Shown in pieces: positions 14,809 through 59,660 of a stretch of 64,000 nt of DNA. Both the position numbers and the translations under genes were made by a program. Source of the stretch: an uncultured Gemmatimonadota bacterium (GTDB taxonomy: Bacteria > JAAXHH01); contig OX638340.1 in the NCBI GenBank assembly GCA_951812955.1, forward strand, positions 1,856,001-1,920,000. The letters are read 5' to 3'. The first letter of the stretch is position 1; every line of letters starts with the position of its first letter. Below the pieces are notes generated by a model. It saw nothing but the letters and a program-made list of their open reading frames with translations. It did not search any database and was not told the origin of the DNA.

Positions 14809-14905
14809 CGTCGAGCAGTAAGGCCGAAACATCGAGGTGAAATGTAATCGGTGATGAGATGAACAGCAACGAACCGACGGGCGAAATGGCAAGAGGCGAT
14901 CACCC

Positions 14906-41063: not shown

Positions 41064-42343
41064 GGGTTCAACACCTGCCCGTTCTTGATCACGGTATGCA
41101 CCGGGTTTCCGCCAAAGAAATAGGGTATGTGGCGGTAATCGGCCTCGTTCAGAATCAGTATATCGGCCCGCTTGCCGACTTCAATGGAACCGGTCCGGTC
41201 CCCCTGGCCGATGGCGAAAGCCGCGTTGATGGTGGATGCGTTCAGCGCTTCCGCGGGGGTGAACCGCTGGTACCTGCAGGCTATGGCCATGACCGTGGGC
41301 ATGGATGGACAGGGTGCCGAACCGGGATTGAGGTCGGTGGCGAGGGCTACGACGGCGCCGGCTTCCATCATTGCCCGCCCATCGGCGTAATCTGCCATAC
41401 CTAGGTTGAAGTTCACCGCCGGTAGCAGGACGGCGATCGTGTCCGAGCGGGCCAGCGATTCGATCGCCTCCCGGCCCGTCACATCGAGGTGGTCCACCGA
41501 GGCGGCGCCGAGTTCCATGGCCATGGCGACTCCGCCGAAATCGTTGAACTGGTCCACGTGCATCTTCGCTTTCAAACCGGCATCAATCCCGGCCTCCAGC
41601 ACCCGCCGGGACTGGGCGAGATCGAATGCGTGGTCTTCGCAGAACACGTCGACGTGCAAGGGAACTTCGCGATCCGAGAAGCGCGAGGACTGGTACCAGG
41701 CCGCCGCTTCCGGCAGGATCTTCTCGATCACGCACCGTGTATACGCTTCGGAATCTCCCTCGAATTCCGGTGGCACCGCGTGAGCGCCCAAAAAAGTGGG
41801 CACGATGTCGCAGGGATGGTCCCGGTCTAGCTGTTCGATGACACGCAGCATCTTCAGTTCGTCGGGAGCGCTCAGACCGTAACCGGTCTTGATCTCCACG
41901 GTCGTTGTGCCCAGTGCGAGCATCTCGTCGAGACGGGTGGAAGCGGACGATACGAGTTCGTCCACGGTTGCGGCCCGCGTGTACCGGACCGTATTCACAA
42001 TTCCCCCGCCTGCAGCCATGATCTCCAGGTAGGAAGCCCCCTTGATCCGCATCTCGAATTCCGCGGCGCGGGCTCCGCCGAAGACCGTGTGGGTGTGGGC
42101 GTCTACGAAACCGGGACAGAGGGATCTCCCACGGCAATCTATCGTGCGCTTGCCCGCGTACCTGCCATCCAGGTCCTCGGCCGGTCCGACCGCCGCGATC
42201 ACCCCGGCCTCTACCGCCACCGACCCGTGCTCGATCATGTGCACCGAGGCCATGTCCGAACCGCGCCGAGGTGTCCCGGGCGACCGTGGCGTGCAGGTCA
42301 CGACCTGATCCGCGTTGTGGAGGTAAAGATCGACGGGTTTCAT
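41060..42343 (-). CDS. hutI: Imidazolonepropionase
   Basis: PGFVDAHTHTVFGG and GGGI motifs, and the overall amidohydrolase pattern of HutI. Sits in hut context. Confidence 0.9.
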   Translation of the reverse strand: MKPVDLYLHNADQVVTCTPRSPGTPRRGSDMASVHMIEHGSVAVEAGVIAAVGPAEDLDGRYAGKRTIDCRGRSLCPGFVDAHTHTVFGGARAAEFEMRIKGASYLEIMAAGGGIVNTVRYTRAATVDELVSSASTRLDEMLALGTTTVEIKTGYGLSAPDELKMLRVIEQLDRDHPCDIVPTFLGAHAVPPEFEGDSEAYTRCVIEKILPEAAAWYQSSRFSDREVPLHVDVFCEDHAFDLAQSRRVLEAGIDAGLKAKMHVDQFNDFGGVAMAMELGAASVDHLDVTGREAIESLARSDTIAVLLPAVNFNLGMADYADGRAMMEAGAVVALATDLNPGSAPCPSMPTVMAIACRYQRFTPAEALNASTINAAFAIGQGDRTGSIEVGKRADILILNEADYRHIPYFFGGNPVHTVIKNGQVLNP

Positions 42344-42408
42344 ATGCCCGCTCGATGAAAGATGGGTGGTCTTGTCGGTCTCGGAGGTTTCATTGCGGCG
42401 CCGGCGTT

Positions 42409-42444
42409 AAAATGTCAAAAGAAAGGGCCCGAAGCTCGTTGCCC
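42409..42444 (-). terminator. Hairpin plus U-rich tract between hutH and hutI (possible attenuator or partial terminator)
   Basis: Minus strand reads GGGCAACGAGCUUCGGGCCC, with GGGC/GCCC and CGA/UCG pairings, followed by UUUCUUUUGACAUUUU. Starts 15 nt after the hutH stop. Confidence 0.3.
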
Positions 42445-42459
42445 AACTTGCGGTACGTC

Positions 42460-44049
42460 TCAGTCCAGCGTCGGACCCGGAATCTCCAACTTCTCCCCGA
42501 CCGCACCGACCACGTCCCCCCGTGCGACCAGACCACGCATGATTTCGATCAGCGGCGCAAGCGGTACGTCGCGGTCCAGGAAGGGCACGTGCCGGCGGAT
42601 CATTCGGTACGCCGCGCCGGTCCCCCGTCCCATTCCATCCGGCGTGACGCCCGGTTCCCGGCACCTGAAATCGATGGCCTGTGCCGCGTCAATCAGTTCT
42701 ATGGCAACGATGGTCTCTACGTTTTCCAGGACCTGTTGCGTATGATGCACCGACGCCGCACCCATGCTCACGTGATCTTCCGTATTCGCGCCGCTCGGTA
42801 TCGAGTCCGCGCTGGCCGGGTGGGCCAGCACCTTGTTCTCCGACGCAAGGGCCGCCGCCGTGTACTGGGTGAGCATCAACCCGCTTTCCAGTCCGCCATG
42901 GTCCGTGAGGAACATGGGCAGGATGCCGCCGTTGGAGTCGGCGTCTACGAGCCGGGCCGTACGCCGCTCGCTCATGTTGCCCATGTCTACGATCGACAGC
43001 TTCATGCTGTCCATCGCCACGGCGATGGGTTCGCCGTGGAAGTTGCCCGCGCTGATGATCTCCGTGTCTTCGGGATCATCCCCGGCGAAGACCAGGGGAT
43101 TGTCGTTCGCGGAGTTCAGCTCGATGTTGATCATCCAGCGGGCGTAATCGATCGTGTCCCGGACCGCTCCGTGCACCTGGGGGACGCAGCGCAACGTGTA
43201 GGGATCCTGTACGTTGCCGGGATCGTCGGAACGGAGCAAACGGCTGCCGTGCAGCATGTCCCTCAGGAAGGCCGCGCAGGCGACCTGCCTGGGATGGGGA
43301 CGGATGGCGTGCACGCGGGCGTCGTACGCACGGTCGGTGCCGATCAGCGCTTCCAGGGTCATGGCGGCCGCGATGTCCGCCGTAAGCGCGAGATTTGTGG
43401 CCCGGTGTACCAGCAGGGCGCCGAGTCCCGCCATGAGGGTCGTGCCGTTTGTGAGGGCCAACCCCTCCTTCGCCCCCAGGATAACCGGTTCAAGCCCCGC
43501 CTTCCGGAGGGCCGTTGCGCCGTCGAGACGGCGGGAACGGTACATGGCCTCACCTTCTCCGATCAGCACCAGGGACATGTGCGCCAGGGTCGCCAGGTCT
43601 CCACTTGCGCCAAGGGAACCCCGGCCGGGGATGCAGGGGTGCACGCCCTCGTTGAGCATGTCCACCATCAGCTGGACGACTTCGGGCCGGATGCCCGAAT
43701 AGCCCATGGCGAGCGTATTGGCCCGGACGATCAGCATGGCGCGTACGGTCTCCTCGTCCAGTTCGGGCCCTGCACCGGCCGCGTGGCTTCTTATCAGATT
43801 GAGTTGCAATTCGGCGACCTGTTCGGAAGAGATCAGCTTGTCCTTGAATCGGCCGAAACCGGTGGTGATCCCGTAGGCGATCCGGCCCTCCGAGACCAAT
43901 CGATCCACCACTTCCCGGGAGCGTTTCATGCCGGGGAGGGCATCGGGGTGTATTGCGACGGGGCGGCCCTTCGAGACGGCGACCACCTCGTCGATGGTGA
44001 GATTGTAACCCGTGAGAGGCAGGACATCCTGGGAACGATCCATATCCAA
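42460..44049 (-). CDS. hutH: Histidine ammonia-lyase
   Basis: MIO-forming GSLGASGDLA motif, about 530 aa, hut context. Confidence 0.95.
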   Translation of the reverse strand: MDMDRSQDVLPLTGYNLTIDEVVAVSKGRPVAIHPDALPGMKRSREVVDRLVSEGRIAYGITTGFGRFKDKLISSEQVAELQLNLIRSHAAGAGPELDEETVRAMLIVRANTLAMGYSGIRPEVVQLMVDMLNEGVHPCIPGRGSLGASGDLATLAHMSLVLIGEGEAMYRSRRLDGATALRKAGLEPVILGAKEGLALTNGTTLMAGLGALLVHRATNLALTADIAAAMTLEALIGTDRAYDARVHAIRPHPRQVACAAFLRDMLHGSRLLRSDDPGNVQDPYTLRCVPQVHGAVRDTIDYARWMINIELNSANDNPLVFAGDDPEDTEIISAGNFHGEPIAVAMDSMKLSIVDMGNMSERRTARLVDADSNGGILPMFLTDHGGLESGLMLTQYTAAALASENKVLAHPASADSIPSGANTEDHVSMGAASVHHTQQVLENVETIVAIELIDAAQAIDFRCREPGVTPDGMGRGTGAAYRMIRRHVPFLDRDVPLAPLIEIMRGLVARGDVVGAVGEKLEIPGPTLD

Positions 44050-44065
44050 CCGATTCCTTCCGGGT

Positions 44066-45715
44066 TCAGTCCATCATGGGGATCTTCACGCCACGGGCTT
44101 TCGCAACTGCCTCGGCCTCTTCGTAACCGGCGTCGACGTGCCGGGCCACGCCCATGCCCGGATCGTTGGTGAGCACACGCTCCAGGCGCGCGGCCGCCTC
44201 CGGTGTGCCGTCGGCGACGATGACCTGTCCGGCGTGCAGGCTGTATCCGATGCCCACGCCGCCGCCGTGATGGTAACTCACCCAGGTGGCTCCGCTGGCC
44301 GTATTGATGAGCGCGTTCAGCACGGGCCAGTCCGCGATGGCGTCCGACCCGTCTTTCATGGCCTCGGTTTCGCGGTTCGGGCTGGCGACGGACCCGCTGT
44401 CCAGGTGATCCCGGCCGATGACGATGGGCACACTGATCTCGCCCGAGGCAACCAGTTCGTTGAATTTGAGCCCGGCCCTGGCCCGCTCCCCGTAACCCAG
44501 CCAGCAGATTCGGGCCGGCAGCCCCTGGAATTCCACGTGCCGCCGGGCCATCGTGATCCAGCGGAACAGGTGGTCGTCCTCGGGAAACAGTTCGAGGACG
44601 GCCTGGTCCGTCCGGTAGATATCCTCGGGATCCCCCGAGAGGGCGACCCAGCGAAAGGGCCCCCTGCCTTCGCAGAACAGGGGCCGGATGTAGGCCGGCA
44701 CGAAACCGGGATAGTCGAAGGCCTCTTTCAGCCCGTTGTCGTATGCGCGTTGCCGGAGGTTGTTGCCGTAGTCGAAAACCACGGCCCCTCGCTTCTGCCA
44801 TTCGAGCAGGGTCCGTACGTGCACAGTCATGGATGCGATCGAGCGTTCCTGGTATGCGTCCGGATCGCGGTCGCGCAGCATTGCCGCCTCGTCAGGCGAC
44901 AGACCTGCGGGTATATAACCGTATAGCGGATCGTGGGCCGCGGTCTGATCGGTAACTACGTCGGGCGCCAATCCCCGGTCCAGCAGTTCGGGAAGTACCT
45001 CCGCGGCGTTACCGATCAGGGCGATCGACCGGGCTTCACCCGCGCTGAGTGCCTCGTTCACCCAGGTCAGCGCCAGGTCGAGGTTTTCCGCCACGGTATC
45101 CACCTGGCGCAGTTCGAGGCGCCGCCGCGCCCGCCGGGGATCCACCTCCACCAGCAGGCCCACGCCGCCGTTCATGGTGATGGCCAGCGCCTGGGCGCCG
45201 CCCATCTCTCCCAGGCCGGCCGTGACTACGAGCTTTCCCGCCAGGCTGCCCCATCCTTGCTTGCGGGCCAGCGCGCCGAAGGTCTCGTAGGTGCCCTGCA
45301 GGATGCCCTGCGTTCCGATGTATATCCAGCTTCCGGCCGTCATCTGGCCGTACATGATCAGGCCTTCGCGCTCCCAGGTATCGAAGTGCTCCTGTGTGGC
45401 CCAGGCCGGTACCATGTTGGAGTTTGCGATCAGAACGCGCGGCGCGTCTGCATGGGTGCGAAAAACCGCCACGGGTTTGCCCGACTGCACCATGAGGGTT
45501 TCGTCGGGTTCCAGGTCGCGCAGGGCGCGCAGTATGGCGTCGAAGGCTTCCCAGTTCCGGGCGGCCTTTCCCCTGCCGCCATACACGACAAGGTTGTCAG
45601 GATCGAAAGCGACCAGGGGGTCCAGGTTGTTCTGGATCATGCGGTAGGCCGCTTCGATGAGCCAGTTCTTACAACTCAGCTTCGTCCCCGTGGGGGCTTT
45701 CACGTTTCGTTTCAC
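44066..45715 (-). CDS. hutU: Urocanate hydratase
   Basis: Near-full-length match to HutU as I recall it: [66 protein letters not shown] start at 45715. Confidence 0.95.
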
Positions 45716-47359: not shown

Positions 47360-47396
47360 AAAAGGGACAGGTGCAATTCGCCTGTCCCTTTTCTTT
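47360..47396. terminator. Bidirectional rho-independent terminator between convergent genes
   Basis: Perfect 8-bp stem GGGACAGG (47364-47371) / CCTGTCCC (47381-47388) with a 9-nt loop. Flanked by AAAA on the left and TTTTCTTT on the right. The T-tract overlaps the stop codon of the minus-strand gene. Confidence 0.75.
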
Positions 47397-48453
47397 ACCA
47401 GTTTTCAGGATTCAAGCCGACGCGGATTCCCGCTTCTTCGATCTGCCGCCAGGTGGTATCGTCGATGCTGATCCCTTCACGGCGCCGTTCCTCCGCCAGC
47501 CTGAATTCCGGTTCTCCCGGAACGAGAATCTCTTCGAATCCCGGCGCGGTCCGGCTGGATTTCACGTGCCGGATCAATCCCTCGATCTCCTGGTAGTACC
47601 AGTCCAGGTCCGAGAAGAACGAAATATCGAAGACGGTGAAGAGCACGCCGTTGCTTTCCACGATCTGTTCGCCCTGCGCGCAACCCTGTCCGCTCAGCGC
47701 ACCGCCCAGGACCTCCACCATCAAACCCAGGCTGTAACCCTTATGGGCGACGATTCCGCCCATGGGCAGGATGGCGCCGTTGGGGGGCGGTCCCTTGATG
47801 ACCGTGGGATCCGTGGTGGAGTTGCCTTCGTGGTCGATCAACCATCCTTCCGGAACCCGCACCCCCTTGTTCGCGGCGACCCGGACCTTCCCTTCGGCGA
47901 CGACGGAGGTAGTCAGGTCCACCATGATGGGATCGGCGTCTCGACGGGGCGCCGAAAAGGCGATTGGGTTGGTGCTGATTCGTCCGTCGATACCGCCAAA
48001 AGGCGGAATCTGGCGTCCGAAGCGGCCCGCGTTGACGAAGGCCAGCCCGATCAGACCTTCCCGGGCCGCCATGAGGGGATAGGCGCCTACGCGGCCCACG
48101 TGGCTCGTACGCCGGAGCGTAACCGTGGCCGTGCCGTGCTTACGTGCTTTCTTCATGGCGAGCCGCATGGCGATGGTGCCGCCAACCTGGCCGAGGGCGC
48201 CGCCGTTGTCCACCAGGGCCGTGCAGGGACTTTCTCTCACGATGCCCACGTCGGCCCGGGCCTTGAATCGTCCCTCGTCCATAATGGCCTTGACGTACTC
48301 CGGTATCCGAATGGCGCCGTGGGAATCATGGCCGAAGAGATTCGAGTCCACGAGGTGGTCCACGACGCTGCGGGCATCGTCCTCGGTACAGCCGGCCGCT
48401 TCCAGCACCTCGCAACCGATGCGATGGAGTTTATCGGGGGTAATTACGGGCAT
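47395..48453 (-). CDS. Ldh2-family (malate/L-lactate/sulfolactate dehydrogenase type 2) oxidoreductase
   Basis: FGHDSHGAIRIPEYV, ALGQVGG and RRTSHVGRVGAY are typical of the Ldh_2 family. Confidence 0.8.
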   Translation of the reverse strand: MPVITPDKLHRIGCEVLEAAGCTEDDARSVVDHLVDSNLFGHDSHGAIRIPEYVKAIMDEGRFKARADVGIVRESPCTALVDNGGALGQVGGTIAMRLAMKKARKHGTATVTLRRTSHVGRVGAYPLMAAREGLIGLAFVNAGRFGRQIPPFGGIDGRISTNPIAFSAPRRDADPIMVDLTTSVVAEGKVRVAANKGVRVPEGWLIDHEGNSTTDPTVIKGPPPNGAILPMGGIVAHKGYSLGLMVEVLGGALSGQGCAQGEQIVESNGVLFTVFDISFFSDLDWYYQEIEGLIRHVKSSRTAPGFEEILVPGEPEFRLAEERRREGISIDDTTWRQIEEAGIRVGLNPENW

Positions 48454-48535: not shown

Positions 48536-49570
48536 TCAGGTTCTGTATTTCTCCAGTTTCTTCTGTAATCCCGGCCGTTCGAGCACAGCCCTGTTCACCA
48601 CGTAGGGCGGCTCTTCGCCCCTGGAGACGGCCAGGGCCGCCTTGACGCAGTCGTGGCCGATATCACGAAACAGCTCATGGGTCCAGCACGACGCGTGGGG
48701 CGCCAGGATGACATTCGGGAGCGTGAGCAGCTCATCATCGGGATCGGGCGGCTCCCGTTCGAAGACATCGATGGCCGCGCCCTTGATCCAACCGTCCCGC
48801 AGGGCCCGGGTCAGCGCTTCCTGGTCGACGATCGCGCCACGGGCCGTGTTGACCAGGAAGGCGTCCTCCCTCATGAGGCGCAGTTCCCGCGCGCCGATCA
48901 GGTGCCGGGTGTGTTCGTTCAACGGGCAGTGGATGGTCACGAACGTGCTGCGCCGCAACAGGGTCTCACGGTCCACCAGTACAACGCCCAGTTGCGCGGC
49001 CTCTTCCGCGGACACCGCCGGATCGCTGATGAGGACTTCGGACGGCTCGAAGGGCGCCAGCATGCGCACCACCTCGCGGCCGATCATGCCCATGCCAATC
49101 AGGCCGACCACGCGGCCGCGGATCTCGCATCCCATGTGATCGAACCGGACACCCCAGTCGTCATTCCGTACGATGGCGTCCTTAATCGTCACCCGGTGGC
49201 AGAGTCCGAGCATCAGGGCCATCGTGGCGCTGGCCACGGGCCTCCGGGTGGCCTCCGGAGTGATGGTAATCATGACGTCCGCGTCTGTCGCCGCAGCGAG
49301 ATCGATCATGTCGTAGCCCACGCCGGTTCGCGCGATGAGCGCCAGGCGTTCGACGCCCGCGAAGCTTTCACGCGTGTAGGCCTGTCCCATGGATACGACC
49401 ACGTCGAAGTCTGAAAGCTGATCCGGGGTGACGGGACTCCGGTCTTCGGCAAGGTACGCGTGAGAGACTCCGGCCTTGTCCAGCAGGTCGACTCCGAAAT
49501 CGTCGAACACGACCCCGCCGTCTGGACCCAGCAGGTCGGCGACCAGGGCTACGCGGAATTCATCGGTCAT
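48536..49570 (-). CDS. D-isomer-specific 2-hydroxyacid dehydrogenase, NAD-binding
   Basis: GLIGMGMIGREV Rossmann motif and the catalytic triad context NTARG, DVFEREP, APHAS. Confidence 0.85.
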   Translation of the reverse strand: MTDEFRVALVADLLGPDGGVVFDDFGVDLLDKAGVSHAYLAEDRSPVTPDQLSDFDVVVSMGQAYTRESFAGVERLALIARTGVGYDMIDLAAATDADVMITITPEATRRPVASATMALMLGLCHRVTIKDAIVRNDDWGVRFDHMGCEIRGRVVGLIGMGMIGREVVRMLAPFEPSEVLISDPAVSAEEAAQLGVVLVDRETLLRRSTFVTIHCPLNEHTRHLIGARELRLMREDAFLVNTARGAIVDQEALTRALRDGWIKGAAIDVFEREPPDPDDELLTLPNVILAPHASCWTHELFRDIGHDCVKAALAVSRGEEPPYVVNRAVLERPGLQKKLEKYRT

Positions 49571-49598: not shown

Positions 49599-51656
49599 TC
49601 AGAACAGGATCTGGGACGTCGACTTGGCGATCAAGACCAGGGAGACGGCCGCCATGCCGATCAGCCCAAGGCCGCACCCGTACCCGGCGAGGATCACCGG
49701 CGCGTAGGCGCGCCATCGTTTCTCTCCGTAGCGCCGTCCGAAATAGAACCTTCCCAGCATGGCGCCGATGAACGTGGGCAGCGTGTAGTGAATCCACGCG
49801 CCCGTGCCCAGTCCGGCCACCAGGCCGTAGAAAAGCAGCGGCGGCGCTTTGAGCAGGCTCAGCACCCCGTACAGCGCGAACGTGAACCCCATTCCGGCGC
49901 CGATATACTCCCAGCGGATCAGTTGCCCGATCACGTCTGAGCCGCCCGGCAGGGTAGACTTGATCCAGATCGTCTCCATCGTGGCCTGCAGCGGCCACAT
50001 CTTCTCGACGAAAGGATAGGCCGCGGACGGTATGGGCGCCAGTTTCCAGATCAGGGCGTAGAACACGAAACTGAATACGATAAGCAGTATCAGGCTCAAT
50101 ATATAGAGTTTGACCAGGCTTGGAAATCGCGTTCGGGTGAGTTCCAGCTGCCGGAAAGTCGCCACGACGCCGCTGTGATCGAAGAGGGGAACCGGGGCGA
50201 ACCAGATCGCCACCCCCTTGTAGCCCGACAGGTAGAAGGACCCCTCTCTGGCGTAGGGGAAGGATGACCCGTAGGGAGAGCCCGTCAAACCTATCATGCG
50301 GGCGCCGATGTAGGAGAAAAAAGGCGTCCACAGAAACCCGAACACCACGGAGATCCACACGGGAAACGCCGGTTCAAGGTAGTAGACCAGGGCAATAAAG
50401 CACAGGGTCGAAACCACCCAGAGCGCGATGGGGATGGGCAGCCTGAAATCACCCCTTTCCGGCGGCGGTTTGCGGGGGCCCTGCCCGCCGGACGCCCCAT
50501 CCGGGTCTCTCCTCAACGCGCGGGCGAAGGCGACCAGGCCGATCAGGCCGATGACCAGCGAAGTGCCGATGGAAGAAAAACTCAGCCAGAAGTCGATGGT
50601 GTTGTTGATGGAGGTGGGTATGGTGCTCATCCCCGGCGTCCAACTGTGCAACAGGCCGAAGTGGTAGAGGAGCGGATTGGCAATAAAGGTGATGACGAAG
50701 GAACTGATGAAGGTGCCGACCACGATCCAGAAGGGCAGGACGAATCCCACCAGGAGGGTGGCCATGTCCGTTCCGATGCCGATGGGCGACGCGGGCAGCA
50801 CGTCCCGGAACCGCGGCGTGAAGTCCGCGAAGGGAATGGGGAAGACCTCCACACCCTTGGTCAGCACCACGCCGGAAATGGTGGGGACGACGACATATAA
50901 TATGCCCCAGCCCAGTCCGATCATGGCGCCGACGGTGAACATTCGCCATCGCCAGGTCTCTTCCCCCGCCGACGATTCGGCCAGGGCGGTAGCGCCGGCC
51001 GCCTGCACGGGCGCCAGGGGGAAGGGCAGGCGTTCGGTGTCGGCCGTAATCCGGAAGAGCACGTATCCCAGGGAGAGCGCGTTGACCAGGCCGAGGATGG
51101 ACACGAGGACGGCCAGGAGAATGGGCTCCAGCCACTCCATGGAGAAGAGGGTCCGGGTGATCAACGAATCGGCACCCCGGGGCGGGGAAACCCACTGTGG
51201 AAGAAGCTGGGCCAGGCCGTCCGCCTGGGGAGACTGGATCAGGTACTGGAACCAGATCATCTTGGCGAAGGGCGCGCCGTGCACCGACGACCCGGCCGCC
51301 ATACCGCTGGCGCCCAGTCCCGTGGCCGCAAGCCCGGCGGCAAGCCAGTAGAGGATGATGGCTTCCTGAGGCTTGAGCTTTATAAACAGGCGCTTGCCGA
51401 TCTCGATGAACATGATGATGGTGACCCATTCCGCGGCGCCCGCGAAACTCTTGCCCGTCACCAGTTCCAGGTAGATCGCGCCGGGGAGCATGACCAGCCC
51501 CACGAAGAAGGCGGCCCAGATGATGCGGCTGCTGAACCCGTCCTCGTAGGGCAGGTTGTCCGGAACGATCTGCCACCGGTCATCCTGTTCGGCTCCGGTG
51601 GGAATCGCTTCCCGATCCCGCTGTTCGTGCTGCTCGCGTCTGTTTTCGTCGCTCAT
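49599..51656 (-). CDS. Polytopic membrane protein of unknown function (putative transporter, possibly OPT-superfamily-like)
   Basis: 685 aa with at least 14 hydrophobic segments and an acidic N-terminal tail. The LPFPLAPVQAAGATA segment loosely recalls the OPT LxFPSGxAxA motif. Architecture is similar to 57513-59507. Confidence 0.75.
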   Translation of the reverse strand: MSDENRREQHEQRDREAIPTGAEQDDRWQIVPDNLPYEDGFSSRIIWAAFFVGLVMLPGAIYLELVTGKSFAGAAEWVTIIMFIEIGKRLFIKLKPQEAIILYWLAAGLAATGLGASGMAAGSSVHGAPFAKMIWFQYLIQSPQADGLAQLLPQWVSPPRGADSLITRTLFSMEWLEPILLAVLVSILGLVNALSLGYVLFRITADTERLPFPLAPVQAAGATALAESSAGEETWRWRMFTVGAMIGLGWGILYVVVPTISGVVLTKGVEVFPIPFADFTPRFRDVLPASPIGIGTDMATLLVGFVLPFWIVVGTFISSFVITFIANPLLYHFGLLHSWTPGMSTIPTSINNTIDFWLSFSSIGTSLVIGLIGLVAFARALRRDPDGASGGQGPRKPPPERGDFRLPIPIALWVVSTLCFIALVYYLEPAFPVWISVVFGFLWTPFFSYIGARMIGLTGSPYGSSFPYAREGSFYLSGYKGVAIWFAPVPLFDHSGVVATFRQLELTRTRFPSLVKLYILSLILLIVFSFVFYALIWKLAPIPSAAYPFVEKMWPLQATMETIWIKSTLPGGSDVIGQLIRWEYIGAGMGFTFALYGVLSLLKAPPLLFYGLVAGLGTGAWIHYTLPTFIGAMLGRFYFGRRYGEKRWRAYAPVILAGYGCGLGLIGMAAVSLVLIAKSTSQILF

Positions 51657-51756: not shown

Positions 51757-52914
51757 CTACTCCGCCCTGATATAGTTGCCCGCCTTGTCCCAGTCCGGCC
51801 GCGTCAGGCCGTTCAGGTCCCATACCACCTGTCCGGCGCGCACGGTCAGCAGGCATCGCAGCCGCCGGTCGCCGCGCATGCGGGCGAGGCCCGAATCGAC
51901 GAAGCCGAATTCCCCGTATTCCAGTTCCAGCACGGCGACGTCCGCCTCCGCGCCGATGCTCAGGGTACCCAGTTCCGGCCGCCGTATGGTCCGGGCGGGA
52001 TTGCGCGTGGAGCGCATGACCACGTCCTCCAGGGTCATCCCCATGTTCAGGCATTTCGACATGGTCGTGATCATGCTCGCGTTCGGCATAAGGGCACTGT
52101 ACTTGTGGAAATCCGTGCTGACCGTATCCGGCAGGAAGCCCTGCTCGATGGCCGGCACGGCGATGCGGAACCAGAAGCTGCCGCCGCCGTGGCCCAGATC
52201 GAACAGGATGCCCTTGTCCCGCGCCTCCCGGACGTAGTCGTTCACCCTGCCGCGATGGTCCAGCAAGGGGATGTGCTGTGCGTACAGGTGGGTGTGTATG
52301 TCGCCCGGACTCAGTTTCTTCAGCAGCAGGTCCCGGTAGCTGCGGTTCGGCTTCGGTGCGAAATCGATCATGGCAATGGCGCCGCTCCGCCGGGCCGCCT
52401 CGACGGCGCCGTCGACCGCCTCCCACCCCGGTCCGTTGAAATGGGCGGTCTTGGATCCCACGACGTGTTCCGGATACCTGCTGATCATGTCCGCGCAGGG
52501 CACGGGGTCCATCTCCGACACGTCCTGTTCCACGGCGCCTTCCATACCGGCGCCCACGATGTTGATCAGGGCCAGCACCCGGGTTATGGACTCGGCGATG
52601 ACCGTGTCCTTGAAGTCTTCGAATTTCTTCCACCCGGCGCCCCCTGTATCGAGCACCGTGGTCACGCCGTTGGGGAGCACGTGGGCATCGGGGAACACCC
52701 ATCCCCGGTAGCCGCCATAGGCGTGCATGTGGATGTCGATCAGGCCAGGCGTGACGTAATGGCCGTGGACGCGGGCGACCTGTCTCCCGTGCTCCGCCGG
52801 GATGTCGTGTCCAACCGCCGCAATCAGTCCGTCGTTGACGGCGACGTCCCGGCTATCGTTGATGCCGTTTTGGGGATCGATGACCTGTCCGCCCTTGATT
52901 ATGAGATCGTACAT
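51757..52914 (-). CDS. Amidohydrolase-superfamily metallohydrolase (dihydroorotase-like, COG3964/PRK09237-like)
   Basis: PGLIDIHMHAY metal motif, DLGHGGGSFWF, VSTDFH and MSKCLNMGMTLEDVV blocks. AGGAG lies between the upstream stop and the ATG. Confidence 0.8.
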   Translation of the reverse strand: MYDLIIKGGQVIDPQNGINDSRDVAVNDGLIAAVGHDIPAEHGRQVARVHGHYVTPGLIDIHMHAYGGYRGWVFPDAHVLPNGVTTVLDTGGAGWKKFEDFKDTVIAESITRVLALINIVGAGMEGAVEQDVSEMDPVPCADMISRYPEHVVGSKTAHFNGPGWEAVDGAVEAARRSGAIAMIDFAPKPNRSYRDLLLKKLSPGDIHTHLYAQHIPLLDHRGRVNDYVREARDKGILFDLGHGGGSFWFRIAVPAIEQGFLPDTVSTDFHKYSALMPNASMITTMSKCLNMGMTLEDVVMRSTRNPARTIRRPELGTLSIGAEADVAVLELEYGEFGFVDSGLARMRGDRRLRCLLTVRAGQVVWDLNGLTRPDWDKAGNYIRAE

Positions 52915-52924
52915 CGCTGCTCCT

Positions 52925-55900
52925 TCAGGTCAATTGCGGCGCTTCCGCGGGCGCTCGTTCCTCGACTTTCCGGTACTGGTCCTTGATGGACTCGGAAAGG
53001 GTACGCCACACGAGGAAACGTTTCCGCAGCACGGTGAAGAACCGGCGGTTGATGGTCTGCCACTGCGCAAGGTCCCCGCTGCGCCGGCGGATTGCGATCA
53101 TGATCCGGTACAGGCTTTCACCCGGTACGGGCTCCAGTTCCAGCGCCACGTCCTGGCTGATGGCGAGATCGTAGGGCGCGAGCCATACCGTCGCAGATAC
53201 ACGGTAGCCTTCTATAGGCCGGGCCGGTACCACGTCATGCGCCGTTCCCTCCGCGACGAAATCCTCGGCCGAACTGTCCTCGTGGGTCTGGAAAATGTGT
53301 GCCAGGTATCCCGCCAGCGGATAGGCCTCCGGGATGGTGACGGTAAAGGGAAACTCGAAGCGCCAGTCGTCGCCGTCGGGCGTTGGTGGCGCCCAGCGCC
53401 GGGTCACGTCCTCCACCGTCATGTCCGCGGCCTTTTTGGCCGGGTAGAGGGTGGACAGGAACACGACGACCATGACGACCACCGTCGCGTATACGGTCGA
53501 CAACGAGGAATAGTTCAGCGACAGGCCGCCCAGCAGGTCCCACTGCGACAGGCCCATGGTGATGATCTGGCCGGTGAGGTACCCGAACACAGCGCCTAGG
53601 GTGGCGAATACGGCCGCTTCGGCGATGAACAGCGCGGCAACGTGGTTCGGCGCCAGGCCCACGGCGCTGTATACGCCGATCTCCCGGAACCGTTCGAACA
53701 CGGCGCCCATCATGGTGTTCAGAACCAGGAACGCCGCGATGAGCACCGGGATGATCAGGTTGGCCAGGCCCGAGACCGAAGTGGCGCCAAGGGAGCTGTA
53801 GACCTTCACCTCGTCTTCCGTTCCGACAAACACGGCCAGGAGGACCCGTGACATGAAGGCCTCCACGGAATCGCGGAGTTGATCGCCATCCGCGAACCCC
53901 GTGATCGCCACGGACCGCGTGGATCCGTTCAGGTCGAGGGTCTGGCGGTAGGGCAGGACCAGCACGTTGCGGGATGGCAGGTGTTCGGAGGCCTGGATCG
54001 TTGACATGAATACCTCCACGTCCATTTCGGTCAACGAACGGGTCATGGAAAAACTGGCGGGCATGATGCTTTCGTCGTCCATGTCCCGGTAGGCGTCCAG
54101 GCCATCGGATTCGAGCAGTCCGATCACGGTATAGCGGCCGCCCAGGATCTCCACGACCGCCGTACCTACGTCCTCGGGCTCCACGTCCAGCCTTTCGGCC
54201 AGTTCCGTGGGCAGCAGACACACCGCCCTTTCGTCAGGACCGAACCATCGCCCGCCCGGTACCAGGTAGCGGTCCAGCCCGGAAATGGCCGGTTCGTCGG
54301 CGTGAAGTCCGAGCAGGGACTGTACCGTGGTGGAGGTTCCCCGGCCCGGCGCCCGCAGGTCTATGTAGGGGCTGGTGAGATCCTCGGGCTCGTACCACGA
54401 CCTGGGCACGACCTCGGCCTGCGCTTTGAAGGCGTTTTCCACGTAGGGCAGGAAAGAAGAGGGCAGCGAGTGCCACGACAGGTTGCGCATGAGGACGCCG
54501 TCGTACGGGGGGGCGTTCTCGCGGTCCAGCGTATAGAACTGGATGCCGGTCCTGAAGGAGGTGAAGGAAAGCACGGTAAAGGTCAGCAGGGTCAGCGTCA
54601 CCGCCGTCAGAGCCGTGCGCAGCTTCCGCTTGCGAAGGTTCGAAATCCCGAGCGATATGGCCACCGCCGTGGCGCTCAGCCGGCCGATGTCCGCCTCGTG
54701 AAGGCCGGCCGCCGACCGGGTCAGGTTCTTCATCTCCGTGTCGAACCGCGTGACGATCATGGTAATGATAATCAGCGCCATGGCCAGGATGATGAAGGCG
54801 AGGAAAACCATGTAGGGCGTCAGGCTGAGTTGAAAGGCCGGATGCACGTTCTGCAGCAACAAAAAGACCGCCGCGAAGATCACGCCCACCGCGAGCAGCC
54901 GCTTGCGAATGTCCGGGAACCCGAAGAACAGTCGCTCGAGGAAGAAGCAGAAGGGTACCAGCAGCATGAAGTAGAAAACGATGCCGTCCACCGTGTCGTC
55001 CGCGGCGTACCGTACATCGGGATAGGCGCGGGCCTCGTAGCCCCACGCTTCCCTCGACCGGGCCACGAAGGCATCGTAGCGGCGGTCTTCCAGGGCTTCC
55101 CGCGCCGCCCGAAGCGCCTGCGTGCTTTCTTCATGCAACTCGGCTGCCCGGGCGTTCGTCACGCCGTGGTCCTCCAGTTTCATCAGCCGCGCCCTGTTGA
55201 GCGACCACAGGTCCAGGGCGCTCTGGTAGAAGGGATAGAGAATCGGCCCCCGGTCCGCCGTGAAGCCTTGTCCCTGTGCCAGGGCCATGACGTCGTCGGA
55301 GATGCTTTCCGGCGGATCGTCGAGCCAGGACTCCGGCGTATTGGTCAGCAGGTACTTGACGCCCCGGGGACCCGCGCTCATGAACATCTTGACGCGGTCC
55401 TCGGGCTTTGCGAAGACCACCGCGGCGTTGGTCATCCAGTTGCCGAAGAAACTCTGGTCTTCCACGAAGGCCGCCCCGTACTTTCGCAGTGGGCTGTTGT
55501 CCCGTCCGAGCACGGTCAGGTTGTCGAGAGCGACGAAGACGCCGGGATCGACGATATCGAAGAGGTTGATCTCCTCGCACGGAAAGAGGACCTGTATGGT
55601 ATTGTTCACCTTGGACGAATTCGGCACCGCGAGAGGGAAGGTGGCGTCGCCCTCCTCCCCCAGGTCCGGCGCGTACACGACCCTGCCTGTGTCGTCCAGG
55701 CCATAGCTGCGAACCTCGGTCGGGCCCTTGGAGTCGCGGACCATGGAAAAACGGAAGTAACCCATCGAATCCGCGTGGGTGACCATGAACCCCCGCACGC
55801 CGCTGTGGCTCTGGTAGCCCGGCTCGTAGACGACCAGGGCATCGGATACCGGGGTGTTGGGCTTGAAGAAATCCACGGTGCGGTCGAACTCGAGGACCCG

Positions 55901-57511
55901 GCCCTCGATGTCGCGGCCGTCGTCTTTCAGCCGAATGGACTCGTCCACGTCGAAGGCCTCGGGGTCCGACAGCATGGCCGGCAGCAAGGTGCCGATGGTC
56001 CTGATCTGCCGGACCAGGTTGGGGAAATCGACGTGCTCGACCCGGTCGACAGGCGTATCGATCAGCAGCCTGTTGTCGTTCACCGTGGAGAAGGTCATGC
56101 CATGCAGCCCCGCGAGCGTGACCATCTCATGATCGAAGGCTGGACCCGCGGGCATGTAGCTTTCCTGGGACCTGAGCGAAGGCGTCAGCGTATTGAGGTA
56201 GGCCGTCCGGCTGTCCTCCCGATCGTACACGCCGGCCTTGCGTGCGTAATTCATGTACCGGTCCGCATAGGGTTCGTACAGTATATCCAGATTCGAGGCG
56301 AAGAAGATGTAATCGCCGTAGCTGAACAGCCCGACCTGGTCCATCCGGCTGGTCAGGTCCAGACCCAGGAAAAGCGTGAAGGGGATCCGGTCCGCCTCAG
56401 GTATGCGTTCCAGGAAAAAATCGTCCGTCCGATAGTGGCGGTCCAAGAAGTCGTTTATGCCCTGCATGCCGTGGAAATGGGCGGACGTGGCCAGAAACAG
56501 CACGGTGTATCCGGGAGGATGGGCGCGGAACACGTCCAGCAGTTCCAGCATCGCCGCGATGCCGCCCGCGCTCTCGGCGCCCGGGGCCTGTCCGGGTACG
56601 ACCGACATGGCGTCATAGAATGCCGACAACACGACGACGCGGTCCTTCCACTTTTCTGTCCCGTCGCCGCCGGGAATCGGTTCGTCCCGACCCTGTATCC
56701 ACCCCATGACGTTCCAGGTTTCAGCCCGTTCCCACGACATGCGACCCCGGATCGTCACGTCGATGTTGCCGGGTCCTTCGGACCGGGCGGCCTGCAGCAC
56801 CTTCGCCGCGTGGGGATCGGGAATCCAGAACCGCGGGACGTCTGCGGGCACGTCCAGGATCTTGCGCTGGGCCTGGTTGTTGGTCACCGCGCCCGGACCG
56901 CTGTCGTAGAACAGGATAGCCTGCGCGCCCAGCATCCGCGCGTTGAGATACTGGTCTCGCCCGTCGAAATCGATCAGGACGATGCTTCCCTCGATCTCTT
57001 TCCCGTTGAAGGCCTGGAATTCGCCCCGGCGTCCATAGTGCAGTGGGCCTTTGATGCCGTTGGGAAAGGAATTCAGCCGGACCAGATTGGGCCAGAACTG
57101 GTACACCGGGATTTCGGTTTCAACTGAATCGTGCAGGGTAAGCGTGAACCCGTGGTCGACCGGCGAGGAAACGGTGAAGGTATCGATGGTTACTTCGGAC
57201 AGTCCCCCTGCATGGAACGCGTCGACCACGTACTCCATGGCCGCGCGGTTCCCCGGGTAGCCCACGACGCGCGACGGATGTGCGCTCATCGACCGGACGT
57301 GGGCCTCGACGCCCTCCACGGTCACGATTTCGGAGACTTCTTCCCAGGTCACTGGAGCTTCTTCGAGGGGCCTGGGAGTCACGTCATCGGGAAGCGAGAC
57401 GAACCTCAGGATCACGTGCTCCGTGACCCAGGCCGGACCGGCCACGGCCACGGCGAGGAAGAGCAGGACGCCCACGACAAGAAAGAAAGTTCCGAAAATC
57501 CGAGAATACAC
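52925..57511 (-). CDS. Giant membrane protein: N-terminal TM + PA/M28-peptidase-like ectodomain (degenerate active site) + beta-sandwich region + 3 TM + FtsX/MacB-type permease module + C-terminal cytoplasmic domain
   Basis: 1528 aa with a GTG start 1 nt after the upstream stop. PA-like segment GKEIEGSIVLIDFDGR..ARMLGAQAILFY. M28-like blocks VVVLSAFYDAM, PGAESAGGIAAMLEL and VLFLATSAHFHGMQG. FtsX TM RKRKLRTALTAVTLTLLTF and FtsX core NTMMGAVFERFREIGVYSAVGLAPNHVAALFIAEA. Confidence 0.8.
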   Translation of the reverse strand: MYSRIFGTFFLVVGVLLFLAVAVAGPAWVTEHVILRFVSLPDDVTPRPLEEAPVTWEEVSEIVTVEGVEAHVRSMSAHPSRVVGYPGNRAAMEYVVDAFHAGGLSEVTIDTFTVSSPVDHGFTLTLHDSVETEIPVYQFWPNLVRLNSFPNGIKGPLHYGRRGEFQAFNGKEIEGSIVLIDFDGRDQYLNARMLGAQAILFYDSGPGAVTNNQAQRKILDVPADVPRFWIPDPHAAKVLQAARSEGPGNIDVTIRGRMSWERAETWNVMGWIQGRDEPIPGGDGTEKWKDRVVVLSAFYDAMSVVPGQAPGAESAGGIAAMLELLDVFRAHPPGYTVLFLATSAHFHGMQGINDFLDRHYRTDDFFLERIPEADRIPFTLFLGLDLTSRMDQVGLFSYGDYIFFASNLDILYEPYADRYMNYARKAGVYDREDSRTAYLNTLTPSLRSQESYMPAGPAFDHEMVTLAGLHGMTFSTVNDNRLLIDTPVDRVEHVDFPNLVRQIRTIGTLLPAMLSDPEAFDVDESIRLKDDGRDIEGRVLEFDRTVDFFKPNTPVSDALVVYEPGYQSHSGVRGFMVTHADSMGYFRFSMVRDSKGPTEVRSYGLDDTGRVVYAPDLGEEGDATFPLAVPNSSKVNNTIQVLFPCEEINLFDIVDPGVFVALDNLTVLGRDNSPLRKYGAAFVEDQSFFGNWMTNAAVVFAKPEDRVKMFMSAGPRGVKYLLTNTPESWLDDPPESISDDVMALAQGQGFTADRGPILYPFYQSALDLWSLNRARLMKLEDHGVTNARAAELHEESTQALRAAREALEDRRYDAFVARSREAWGYEARAYPDVRYAADDTVDGIVFYFMLLVPFCFFLERLFFGFPDIRKRLLAVGVIFAAVFLLLQNVHPAFQLSLTPYMVFLAFIILAMALIIITMIVTRFDTEMKNLTRSAAGLHEADIGRLSATAVAISLGISNLRKRKLRTALTAVTLTLLTFTVLSFTSFRTGIQFYTLDRENAPPYDGVLMRNLSWHSLPSSFLPYVENAFKAQAEVVPRSWYEPEDLTSPYIDLRAPGRGTSTTVQSLLGLHADEPAISGLDRYLVPGGRWFGPDERAVCLLPTELAERLDVEPEDVGTAVVEILGGRYTVIGLLESDGLDAYRDMDDESIMPASFSMTRSLTEMDVEVFMSTIQASEHLPSRNVLVLPYRQTLDLNGSTRSVAITGFADGDQLRDSVEAFMSRVLLAVFVGTEDEVKVYSSLGATSVSGLANLIIPVLIAAFLVLNTMMGAVFERFREIGVYSAVGLAPNHVAALFIAEAAVFATLGAVFGYLTGQIITMGLSQWDLLGGLSLNYSSLSTVYATVVVMVVVFLSTLYPAKKAADMTVEDVTRRWAPPTPDGDDWRFEFPFTVTIPEAYPLAGYLAHIFQTHEDSSAEDFVAEGTAHDVVPARPIEGYRVSATVWLAPYDLAISQDVALELEPVPGESLYRIMIAIRRRSGDLAQWQTINRRFFTVLRKRFLVWRTLSESIKDQYRKVEERAPAEAPQLT

Positions 57512-57512: not shown

Positions 57513-59507
57513 TCAGTCTATCCCGTAGATATGATGCCCCGCGTGGGGGAACCATATGTAATCAACGAACATGGAGATGACCACGCCGGTAGCCACACCG
57601 AAGATAAGGCCCAGGAAGAAGGGCTGACCCTTTCGGTACAGCTCGATACCGCCGACCCACATCATGATGCTCTTGATGACCCAGCAAACGAACATGGACG
57701 ACACGATAGCGCGTGCGGGCCACGAGTAGGAAAGGAAGAAACCGAGGGGATGCAGCGGCCAGCCGGGCAGCCGGGCCCTCAGGGTCATGAGCAGGAACAT
57801 GAGCCAGCCGCCCACCATGAAGAACATGAGGCGGGCCGTGTCCGGTCCGAAGGGATCCCGCATCTTGGTGAGCGTTTCGTTGTAGGGGATGGTCGATCCG
57901 ATCCTTCCGAACCACCATCCGTTGGTGAACTGCCGCGTGCCCTGGTCGAATCCCAGGTAGATCGTCCAGATCAGCGCGATCACCACGCCGATCACCGCGG
58001 CGGACAGGACTGTCCAGCCCAGTCCACGGTGCCAGCGCGCACCGATCTCTGAAAGCTTGGCCACCTGCATGAAGGCGGGCATGAAGGTCGATTTGATCTC
58101 GCTGACGGGTCCATAGGTCTGGGCCATCGCCGTCATGGTGGACATGGACAGGTTCGCCGACCCGACCGAGTAGAATACGAGCACCTGGGCGATCATGGGC
58201 GAACGCACGTAGGGCAGCCCGGCTTCGGCGATGATGCGGGAGACGCCGATATAGATGACGAAGACGCCCGCGAGGAGGAACACGGCAATGGGCACGCTCA
58301 TGCCCAGCTGGTTCAGCCACACGATCCCGTAGACGAACCCGCCGAGAAAGCCGAAGACGGCGACCCGGTAGGGCAGCATCTCATCGGAGTCGTCCAGGTC
58401 CGATCTGCGGCCGAACGCATGGGAGAACACCGCGCGGATGTGAAACCTGGCCCGCCACAGCCCCCAGGCTACGAACACGATGAAGGCGCCCATGTTCTGC
58501 CAGTCCAGCATGGGGTGGATTGACGTGTAGTTGTCCCTGCCAGGTATGTCGTAACCGATCCGTTGTGCGATGCCTACCTGGATGATCCCGATCATGTAGA
58601 ACACCCAGAACCCGGCCAGCACGTCCAGGTTGACGAAGTAGGAAATACCGAGGATGGCTGGCCGGAAGTTGATCTCCAGCGGAGGGAATCCTTCGCCGAA
58701 GACAATGGGCGGCGCCGACCCGAAATAGGGAAACTGGGGCACGACCGGTGTGAAGTATCCGATAATGTTGTACATCATCACGCAGAAAGGGATGGAAAAG
58801 CCGATCCAGAAACGTTTCTCGGTCATAAATTCCGGGATGCGTCCCGACGATTCCATGCCTCGCGTCAAGGCGAGGGGGATCTGCATCATGGGGAATACCA
58901 GTTTCTCGTGTTCGACCCACTGTCTTCTGAGGATCACCACGAGACACAGCCCCATGAAGATGATCGGTACGATGAAGGTCAGCCACCAGAACAGGGGAAT
59001 GCCCCACACGCTCCAGGGTATGGACTCACCGGGCGGGATACCGTCGACGAACCAGGTCAGCGCATTGCCCTGGTTGGTGACGTTCGCCCAGGGTTTCAAA
59101 TAGGGATAAAAGTATTCTGCCCACTGGTTCTCGGGCGTCGCCAGGAGATTCGGCGCCATGAGCGTGGAGATAAACGGGGCGCCCATGCCGTTGGTCGACA
59201 GCCCGGAAGCCGCCATGCCCATGGCCAGGGGGATGACGAACTCGTGGGACGTCAGGGCCCAGTCTTTCTTCCACCGGGCCAGTATCACGTTGAACAGGAT
59301 GAGATACGCAAAGGCCAGGAACAACGCACCGATGTGAAGATGGTCCGCGCCGAGTTGAGACGAGGCCATGGTGTACTGAAAATAGGGGACGATCAGGGAA
59401 ATCAGGACGACGCTCGTCAGGCCCAGGAGGATGGATCTCGGCGTAATGATCCGGGTCGCGGTCGTCGGGCCGGCGGAAGAGGATACACTTTGCTGGGCTG
59501 AGGCCAT
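57513..59507 (-). CDS. Polytopic membrane protein of unknown function (putative transporter)
   Basis: About 664 aa from the ATG at 59507; the ORF opens at a TTG at 59615 inside the likely promoter. At least 14 hydrophobic segments. The C-terminal WPLHPLGFFLSYSW...GGIELYRKGQPFFLGLIFG parallels the C-terminus of 49599-51656. Confidence 0.75.
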   Translation of the reverse strand: MASAQQSVSSSAGPTTATRIITPRSILLGLTSVVLISLIVPYFQYTMASSQLGADHLHIGALFLAFAYLILFNVILARWKKDWALTSHEFVIPLAMGMAASGLSTNGMGAPFISTLMAPNLLATPENQWAEYFYPYLKPWANVTNQGNALTWFVDGIPPGESIPWSVWGIPLFWWLTFIVPIIFMGLCLVVILRRQWVEHEKLVFPMMQIPLALTRGMESSGRIPEFMTEKRFWIGFSIPFCVMMYNIIGYFTPVVPQFPYFGSAPPIVFGEGFPPLEINFRPAILGISYFVNLDVLAGFWVFYMIGIIQVGIAQRIGYDIPGRDNYTSIHPMLDWQNMGAFIVFVAWGLWRARFHIRAVFSHAFGRRSDLDDSDEMLPYRVAVFGFLGGFVYGIVWLNQLGMSVPIAVFLLAGVFVIYIGVSRIIAEAGLPYVRSPMIAQVLVFYSVGSANLSMSTMTAMAQTYGPVSEIKSTFMPAFMQVAKLSEIGARWHRGLGWTVLSAAVIGVVIALIWTIYLGFDQGTRQFTNGWWFGRIGSTIPYNETLTKMRDPFGPDTARLMFFMVGGWLMFLLMTLRARLPGWPLHPLGFFLSYSWPARAIVSSMFVCWVIKSIMMWVGGIELYRKGQPFFLGLIFGVATGVVISMFVDYIWFPHAGHHIYGID

Positions 59508-59576
59508 GGAAAGGGCCGGATTGTGATACTTGCGGTGACTGAAATACGGTAATGAATCTAGTCTGCGGGTCCAGAA

Positions 59577-59605
59577 TATGTAAAATGGCAGACGGTATAA
59601 GTCAA
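59577..59605 (-). promoter_or_regulatory. Candidate promoter TTGACT-N17-TACATA for the large minus-strand operon
   Basis: Read on the minus strand: -35 at 59605-59600 and -10-like at 59582-59577, about 70 nt upstream of the ATG at 59507. Back to back with the plus-strand promoter. Confidence 0.25.
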
Positions 59606-59660
59606 AGAAAAACAAAGTTCCATGAGGTCCTGAGCCACCATCGGCCAGACCTTTTCGTTG

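Follow-up and report, generated by a model that had tools for sequence, protein, structure and literature searches.

A 64,000-nucleotide stretch from an uncultured Gemmatimonadota bacterium (GTDB lineage JAAXHH01; assembly GCA_951812955.1, contig OX638340.1, positions 1,856,001 to 1,920,000 of the forward strand; hereafter the window) carries two genes for polytopic membrane proteins, one on each side of a gene for a giant protein of 1528 amino acids (aa). We find that these two proteins, A (57513-59507, minus strand, 664 aa) and B (49599-51656, minus strand, 685 aa), are paralogs within the oligopeptide transporter (OPT) superfamily that diverged long ago, and that they are kept together with the giant (52925-57511, minus strand) in related genomes across six gene orders. 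The giant combines PA/M28-like and MacB/FtsX-like parts, and we propose that the three proteins may act as a module for substrate capture and import.

A and B are distant paralogs

An initial annotation, made from the letters alone, had described A and B as distant paralogs with a hydrophobic-FP motif and similar C-termini in common. Both open reading frames (ORFs) are present where it had placed them, on the minus strand. Compared directly by BLASTP, A and B align with E 0.004 and 24% identity over 152 aa that span the FP-motif region. We built family alignments of 30 sequences each (A1 for the B family, A2 for the A family) and compared them with hhalign, the check that the annotation had suggested. 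The two profiles align significantly, with a probability of 94-95% and an E-value of 6e-8 to 9e-8, over 560 (561) collinear columns that cover residues ~17-644 of A and ~37-665 of B. The alignment makes exactly the pairings that had been read by eye, matching EKLVFPMMQIPL to ERLPFPLAPVQA and WVIKSIMMWVGGIELYRKGQPFFLGLIFGVATG to GAMLGRFYFGRRYGEKRWRAYAPVILAGYGCG. When the B alignment was reversed, hhalign returned E 0.32 over 29 columns, and in 14 shuffles of 25-column blocks of the B alignment the best E-value was 1.2e-4 and the longest alignment at most 159 columns; the top match of most shuffles was one short stretch of A (about residues 128-150). As the end-to-end similarity of A and B lies far above these reversed and shuffled controls, it is not an effect of composition. 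Plain hidden Markov model (HMM) searches with either family profile did not recover the other protein within the window.

The motif itself reads E-K-L-V-F-P in A (residues 201-206; 58890-58907, minus strand) and E-R-L-P-F-P in B (residues 208-213; 51018-51035, minus strand), and both BLASTP and hhalign set the two against each other. Residues E208, L210 and P213 of B are invariant across the B family, and the motif takes the form EKLPFP in the more remote, OPT-positive relatives described below.

Placement of A and B in the OPT superfamily

Direct family searches gave different results for the two proteins. A matches Pfam DUF6785 (3.5e-110, 369 bits) and DUF6784 (4.4e-22, 79 bits) over its full length, both above threshold. 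B has no Pfam match above E = 0.09 and matches neither of these domains. NCBIfam gave no useful match for A or B, and the window proteins themselves do not reach the gathering threshold of the Pfam OPT family, PF03169. Searches of PDB sequences with the A and B family profiles returned nothing, even at E <= 10, so that only a comparison of folds linked A and B to the PDB.

Relatives of both proteins bridge this distance. We found 1342 homologues of B, some of them named 'peptide transporter', and an exhaustive search with the B profile yielded 1056 cluster representatives. One member of the B family, P0115, passes Pfam OPT over residues 186-650 (28.7 bits against a cut-off of 25.8). The B profile also finds a second tier of relatives at E 1e-64 to 1e-92, and six of ten sampled members of this tier pass PF03169 over their full length. 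On the side of A, hhalign of the A family against a 52-sequence OPT-positive tier gave a probability of 98.8% and E 1.3e-16 over 555 columns. Both transporters of L092, a trio from a metagenome, pass Pfam OPT at full length, the B-type protein as well as its DUF6785/DUF6784 neighbour, which scores 38.3 bits. The likeness to OPT transporters that the initial annotation had called vague is thus a real homology, as seen in the PF03169 passes among relatives and the E-value of the A profile.

Predicted structures point the same way. AlphaFold models of A (pLDDT 87, pTM 0.88) and B (pLDDT 72, pTM 0.79) were searched against the PDB with Foldseek, and for both the only match was barley Yellow Stripe 1 (HvYS1; 7wsr/7wst), with E 8e-9 for A, 5e-8 for B and TM-scores of 0.55-0.69; the next matches had E-values above 0.03 and TM-scores of ~0.1. 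Both models thus have the YS1-type fold of a transport core and a scaffold, which is otherwise unique among solved structures. At least 14 hydrophobic segments had been claimed for each protein. A Kyte-Doolittle scan at a lenient threshold agrees for B, with 16, and falls short for A, with 12, and the models restore the count for both, with 14 helices of at least 15 residues in A and 15 in B, in addition to short hairpin helices. In number and size these fit the OPT pattern of ~16 transmembrane (TM) or hairpin helices in 600-750 aa.

With profile homology, the YS1 fold and the Pfam OPT bridges in agreement, we take A and B to be divergent members of the OPT superfamily (PF03169, TC 2.A.67), and their homology to it is virtually certain. 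They have the same fold, length class and helix count as HvYS1, and end-to-end profile homology and the E-[KR]-L-x-F-P motif in common with the superfamily, although they are only 12-14% identical to HvYS1. The hydrophobic-FP motif first noticed in A and B is this E-[KR]-L-x-F-P signature, which is found superfamily-wide. A belongs to the DUF6785+DUF6784 clade, and B to an unnamed clade immediately beside Pfam OPT. In Pfam, DUF6785 and DUF6784 are separate families with no assigned function; A belongs to them over its full length and B does not. Our results make them the N-terminal and the C-terminal part of a single OPT-fold transporter.

The OPT members that have been characterised transport peptides or metal chelates by proton symport (PMC3061005, PMC9691689). 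HvYS1, too, is a proton symporter; it has an elevator-type core and a scaffold domain through which it forms a homodimer (PMC9691689). The NPG and KIPPR motifs occur in neither A nor B, B having just N327-P328-L; Koh et al. (2002), as quoted in PMC3061005, assign both motifs to the clade of fungal and plant peptide transporters.

Some members of the B family are longer, at 811-1083 aa (P0241-P0247, P0253 and P0265, as well as the ORFs at 13304-15769 of locus L088 and 12858-15341 of locus L090). They carry an insertion of at least ~150 residues between profile positions ~555 and 557, just before the last helices, and the sequence of this insertion resembles that of a soluble, perhaps beta-rich domain.

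A, B and the giant are linked across genomes

From species-representative genomes we took 80 loci, each with a B homologue at its centre, and searched their ORFs with the profiles of the three families. The loci come from metagenome-assembled genomes (MAGs) labelled Latescibacterota, Gemmatimonadota, Zixibacteria and Handelsmanbacteria; the closest B homologues are 95-98% identical to B, and the closest relative of the window lies on OY762445.1. In 54 loci the flanks reach at least 9 kb on either side; A is present in 52 of these, the giant in 51 and both in 50. The 49 complete trios (A, G for the giant, B) occur in six orders: AGB (21), GAB (14), BAG (8), ABG (3), GBA (2) and BGA (1). Pairwise distances within the three families are correlated (r = 0.89-0.97).

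Several paralogous trios are found per genome. The two on OY730476.1 are 40/70/51% identical to each other (A/B/giant), and within one class of trio the identity between genomes is 92-98%. Since trios within a genome have diverged so far and same-class trios across genomes so little, the pattern suggests that the module was duplicated as a whole long ago, and its parts would have stayed together since.

The linkage extends to remote relatives. A search centred on the giant found that distant giants again adjoin B-type genes, A-type genes or both: L088 encodes a giant, a B with the 150-aa insertion and two A proteins, L090 a giant and a B with the insertion, and L089 (1-12545, in an 8-Mb genome) a tandem A-giant-A-giant array with no B-type gene, so that the giant can pair with the DUF6785 type alone. 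We also searched metagenomes for loci of the OPT-positive tier. A search with a single protein of this tier (P0306) found nothing, and one with a three-sequence alignment of OPT-positive second-tier proteins found 79 loci, with the giant in 54 of them and an A-like gene in 38; among the 39 loci longer than 12 kb, the giant is present in 33. Their commonest order is A-giant-OPT, as in this window. Trios exist around bona fide Pfam-OPT members too. The linkage holds down to a giant identity of 22-30%. The minimal unit is a giant with one OPT-type partner, and the common form has two different paralogs.

These results lend strong support, through conservation of the gene neighbourhood, to the link with the giant gene that the initial annotation had suspected, and we consider it highly probable that A, B and the giant are functionally linked. 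Nor is the characterised family to which A and B are now assigned one that is unrelated to the neighbours, since the association with the neighbours is itself conserved. Among reported OPT members we came across none that has an accessory protein of its own.

The linkage has exceptions. More distant DUF6785 proteins, 32-37% identical to A, have no giant and are encoded singly or as convergent gene pairs, with sulfatase and oxidoreductase genes nearby, and a few B genes also lack partners; A- and B-type transporters are probably autonomous at root. Convergent pairs of distant DUF6785+DUF6784 genes were seen at 10001-13964 of L085 and L086 and at 10001-14060 of L087, where the neighbours are sulfatase, GFO/IDH/MocA oxidoreductase, xylose-isomerase-like and PhyH genes. 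Such a context is a hint that part of the family has substrates other than peptides.

One order class has an insert of ~4 kb between B and A. It encodes NHL-repeat proteins on the opposite strand, and we rejected it as a conserved fourth component. In L039 (12106-15975, minus strand) the insert holds two NHL-repeat beta-propeller proteins and one unknown ORF, on the strand opposite to B and A.

Architecture of the giant

Pfam recognises four domains in the giant: PA (21.9 bits, slightly below the cut-off of 23.9), Peptidase_M28 (30.2 bits against 21.3), MacB_PCD (3.2e-6, 28 bits against 27) and FtsX (1.5e-13, 51 bits). In the PDB, a profile built from 32 giants finds the PA+M28 aminopeptidase 2ek8 (E 4e-17), YwaD, YtrF, MacB, LolC and LolF. 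A hydropathy scan gives the topology. A first TM helix (residues 5-23) is followed by a PA/M28-like ectodomain (24-839), three TM helices (840-920) and a short cytoplasmic linker (921-967). Then come FtsX TM1 (968-986) and a MacB periplasmic core domain (987-1245), which together occupy residues 966-1245 (53777-54616, minus strand). FtsX TM2-4 (1246-1355), with the coupling-helix motif ERFREIGVYSxVGLAP, lie in residues 1246-1365 (53417-53776, minus strand), and a cytoplasmic C-terminal domain (1356-1528; 52928-53446, minus strand) ends the protein. Eight TM helices thus anchor the giant, four of them as an FtsX-type bundle.

Conservation in the giant is highest in the FtsX helices, the coupling helix and the C-terminal domain. 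Giants hardly vary, if at all, in the coupling-helix motif E-R-x-R-E-I...G-L-x-P. In the C-terminal domain, 34 positions are the same in all of 32 diverse homologues, and the domain matches no Pfam family and no PDB sequence; it sits where a partner of the FtsX coupling helix might be expected. The layout of the N-terminal half (TM1, ectodomain, TM2-4) mirrors that of FtsX, and we tried it as a degenerate second FtsX repeat, as in ADOP proteins; hhalign found no likeness between the two TM blocks (E 0.19), which leaves the idea unsupported.

The M28-like domain lacks the residues of an active aminopeptidase. We aligned the giants with 2ek8, which places the degenerate metal and catalytic site at residues 298-346 (56474-56620, minus strand). 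The position of the first His ligand, 298, is F, Y or H across giants (F298 here), the bridging Asp is E313, and the catalytic Glu and ligand Glu are replaced by H345-F346. H345 is invariant in sets of 50 and of 32 close-to-moderate giants and is found in 34 of the 43 giants at 22-30% identity, and position 346 is aromatic and almost never Glu. The last His ligand, by our own reading of a motif outside the printed alignment, is presumably the position that is mostly Ser in giants. The two His-ligand positions are not conserved among about 120 giants. The co-catalytic zinc site of His, bridging Asp, Glu-Glu, Asp and His was thus not found in the giants; with Glu-Glu and the ligands replaced, the canonical two-zinc catalytic site is absent across the family.

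To our knowledge, characterised members of the MacB/FtsX fold all work with a nucleotide-binding domain. We scanned for ORFs with both a Walker A motif and the ATP-binding cassette (ABC) signature and found none that is an ABC ATPase beside a giant in 83 genome loci (with flanks of up to 10 kb per side), 79 metagenome loci and the 64-kb window, in a regular-expression scan that may miss divergent ATPases; its four hits, in L009 and three giant-free loci, are unrelated ORFs. Pfam shows no nucleotide-binding domain fused to the giant, and an ATPase may be encoded elsewhere in the genome.

The giant can be set beside several known systems. Like MacB, LolCDE, FtsEX and YtrF, its C-terminal half has an FtsX four-helix bundle, a core domain between TM1 and TM2 and a coupling helix; it differs from them in having no fused or neighbouring ATPase and four additional TM helices, and it adds the 800-residue PA/M28-like ectodomain and the conserved 170-residue cytoplasmic tail. 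ADOP proteins (TIGR03434) are FtsX-type permeases of related phyla with no adjacent ATPase. The giant matches them weakly (E 4.7e-5) and has one detectable FtsX repeat where ADOP has two, and the M28-like domain is present in the giant and not in ADOP proteins, for which we know of no link to OPT-type genes. Three ADOP-like permeases of 700-800 aa occur elsewhere in the window (25-2142, 2701-5106 and 20017-22422, all plus strand), with MacB_PCD and FtsX domains, of which one or both are matched in two stretches. Searched as a single sequence against the PDB, the giant has Nicalin as its best match (E 0.05; profile E 3e-6). Nicalin and nicastrin, like the giant, have an M28-like ectodomain with a disrupted catalytic site in a multi-pass membrane assembly; unlike it, they are eukaryotic and have a single TM helix and other partners. 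The likeness may reflect convergent loss of activity and not a common function.

The gene row in the window

The genes lie in a tight row on the minus strand that spans ~59.5 kb to 47.4 kb. The initial annotation had A and B bracketing the giant. For A this is literally so, as the 1-nucleotide spacer that it reported is confirmed (...GAC TGA c GTG TAT..., with the stop codon of A before and the start codon of the giant after the spacer) and is called independently in a related genome too. B does not abut the giant, from which it is separated by a gene for a 385-aa amidohydrolase/deacetylase-family metallohydrolase (51757-52914, minus strand; Pfam Amidohydro_1/3), 10 nucleotides from the giant and 100 nucleotides from B. 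This protein falls just short of NCBIfam PRK09237 (6.9e-110, 367 bits against a cut-off of 371), and its presence in the operon is confined to the gene-order class A-giant-amidohydrolase-B, that of this lineage.

A gene for a 344-aa D-2-hydroxyacid dehydrogenase (48536-49570, minus strand; Pfam 2-Hacid_dh_C, 9.6e-55) follows B after 28 nucleotides and is conserved in the close lineage. After another 82 nucleotides comes a gene for a 352-aa Ldh_2-family dehydrogenase (47395-48453, minus strand; Pfam Ldh_2, 1.5e-105), which holds the same position in the related locus L001 and is a probable continuation of the operon. Farther downstream on the same strand are an RraA-like (aldolase) gene, hutU and hutH. 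The last two belong to a histidine-utilisation-like block just 3' of the operon (39816-45715, minus strand), which comprises hutU (44066-45715), hutH (42460-44049) and two amidohydrolase genes (39816-41063 and 41060-42343), all on the minus strand.

At the upstream end, a gene of the MMPL family that begins at 59658 diverges from the row. The ORF of A can be extended by 36 codons to a TTG at 59615 (59508-59615, minus strand). A promoter-like -35/-10 pair (TTTACA-18-TAGATT; 59555-59584, minus strand), found by a consensus scan, lies inside this extension, and homologues of A are 664 aa long with 100% coverage. For these two reasons the ATG at 59507 is the better start, and they indicate that the stretch from 59508 to 59615 is untranslated.

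Elsewhere in the window, positions 6000-12000 have a G+C content of ~0.50-0.52, compared with 0.57-0.65 in most of the remainder, and encode an APH-family phosphotransferase and a beta-lactamase-fold gene. This segment may have been acquired.

Discussion

Taken as a whole, the trio is best explained as a module for the capture and import of peptide-like compounds, a reading by family analogy towards which we lean slightly. It builds on homology, fold and gene linkage, which are demonstrated; the direction of transport, the energy source, the class of substrate and the contact among the three proteins are what we infer. The ectodomains of the giant, PA/M28-like and MacB core, would capture peptide-like nitrogenous substrates in the periplasm, might also process them by non-canonical chemistry, and would pass them to the OPT-type partners. 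A and B, putative elevator-type importers by analogy with HvYS1, would move the substrate across the membrane, working as a heterodimer or as two transporters of different specificity; a heterodimer is conceivable because HvYS1 dimerises through its scaffold domain. In this lineage, the amidohydrolase/deacetylase and the dehydrogenases of the operon would then degrade what has been imported. That A and B import using the proton-motive force is probable by analogy with characterised relatives. For a peptide-like substrate we put the chances a little under even, even with the continuation of the operon (amidohydrolase/deacetylase, two dehydrogenases, RraA-like aldolase, hutU/hutH) and the frequent neighbourhood of OPT and peptidase genes in prokaryotes (PMC3061005) counted in its favour, and we suggest only tentatively that the three proteins form a physical complex.

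Several points weigh against this proposal. Substrate, direction and energy source are taken by analogy from the family and may differ here. Other members lie among genes for sulfatases, GFO/IDH/MocA oxidoreductases, a GH20 glycosidase, and NHL and FG-GAP proteins, contexts which suggest that the substrate may be non-peptidic in many lineages. Processing by the giant is doubtful, since the catalytic Glu-Glu is missing from its M28-like site. As some DUF6785 proteins and a few B proteins occur on their own, the transporters can evidently work without a giant, and contact among A, B and the giant is putative, with the chances somewhat against it. Finally, the FtsX coupling helix docks an ATPase in all characterised relatives that we know of, and the proposed mechanism uses none. 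With the coupling helix and the cytoplasmic tail thus unexplained, both an ATPase in trans and a coupling that is independent of ATP stay alive.

The row could instead be an ordinary nutrient operon, in which the giant is an active anchored aminopeptidase that trims extracellular peptides and A and B are stand-alone peptide symporters that differ in specificity and import the trimmed products, with no complex and no hand-off of substrate. The Pfam matches to Peptidase_M28 and PA, the match of the giant profile to the active enzymes 2ek8 and YwaD, the NCBI names 'M28 family peptidase' and 'peptide transporter' and the existence of stand-alone DUF6785 proteins all fit this account, and prokaryotic OPT genes commonly adjoin peptidase genes (PMC3061005). 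It is hard to square, however, with the replacement of the catalytic Glu-Glu by an invariant His and an aromatic residue and the loss of conservation at two His ligands in ~120 giants. It also assigns no role to the FtsX bundle, the coupling helix and the cytoplasmic tail, where the giant is most conserved, and a linkage that outlasts six gene orders and a fall in giant identity to 22-30% exceeds what co-regulation usually maintains. We consider it unlikely.

We give about the same low standing to a more radical version of the module, in which the trio would be a class of multi-component secondary transporter, with an ATPase-less MacB-fold protein mechanically coupled to one or two OPT elevators. 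The giant could then be an obligatory membrane-integral receptor or gate for substrate on its way to the OPT partners, with a logic like that of TRAP transporters; or the proton-driven motion of the OPT elevators could power the periplasmic domains of the giant, replacing ATP hydrolysis. TRAP transporters are elevator-type secondary transporters that need an extracytoplasmic component for substrate capture and an extra membrane subunit. The comparison is an analogy only, as the trio has no sequence or fold relation to TRAP transporters, and their binding protein is soluble, in contrast to the membrane-integral M28/MacB-like capture component proposed here.

Less likely still is a mechanotransmission system like MacB, LolCDE or FtsEX, in which an ABC ATPase encoded elsewhere drives the periplasmic domains of the giant on an envelope substrate, which might be extracted, expelled or activated, and the OPT-type proteins recycle or export the small molecules that go with it. 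The FtsX and periplasmic core domains of the giant do match YtrF, MacB, LolC and LolF, its coupling-helix motif is invariant or nearly so, every characterised member of the fold uses a nucleotide-binding domain as far as we know, and one ATPase in trans could serve several giants per genome. Yet no ORF with a Walker A motif and an ABC signature was found near giants in the loci scanned or in the window, and no nucleotide-binding domain is fused to the giant. Those OPT members that have been characterised are importers, and the three ADOP-like FtsX permeases of the window also lack an ATPase, so that orphan permeases are common in these genomes.

The idea that A and B are unrelated polytopic proteins, alike through hydrophobic composition and placed around the giant by coincidence, can draw on the weak pairwise BLASTP match and on the plain family HMM searches that miss the other protein in the window, and it is left with a negligible probability by the profile alignment that far exceeds its reversed and shuffled controls, by one common fold unique in the PDB, by the sequence bridges through Pfam OPT and by the retention of the trio in 50 of 54 well-flanked loci.

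Membership of the OPT superfamily places both transporters in a known group, and for A a DUF had been catalogued, so the system is not categorically new. A full-text literature search for DUF6785, DUF6784, PF20581, PF20580 and an M28-FtsX fusion found nothing relevant. Three things appear to be undescribed: the identity of DUF6785/DUF6784 and the B family as OPT-fold transporters, their conserved partnership with a PA/M28-like-MacB/FtsX giant, and a giant of this kind that lacks both peptidase catalytic residues and an ATPase.

Bacterial OPT transporters have been little studied, and the sole OPT-type structure to emerge from these PDB searches is that of a plant iron-chelate transporter. Our analysis gives an identity to two Pfam domains of unknown function, brings an unnamed sister family of ~1,000 cluster representatives into the superfamily and provides OPT-type transporters with a conserved partner of ~1,500 residues. 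If the three proteins are indeed one machine, this would be the first OPT system to depend on an accessory protein and the first MacB-fold protein to function with no nucleotide-binding partner. Several copies of the module are present in genomes of Latescibacterota and Gemmatimonadota, among them MAGs with isolate names that suggest a sponge origin, and the module may be a major route for the uptake of dissolved organic nitrogen in these uncultured groups.

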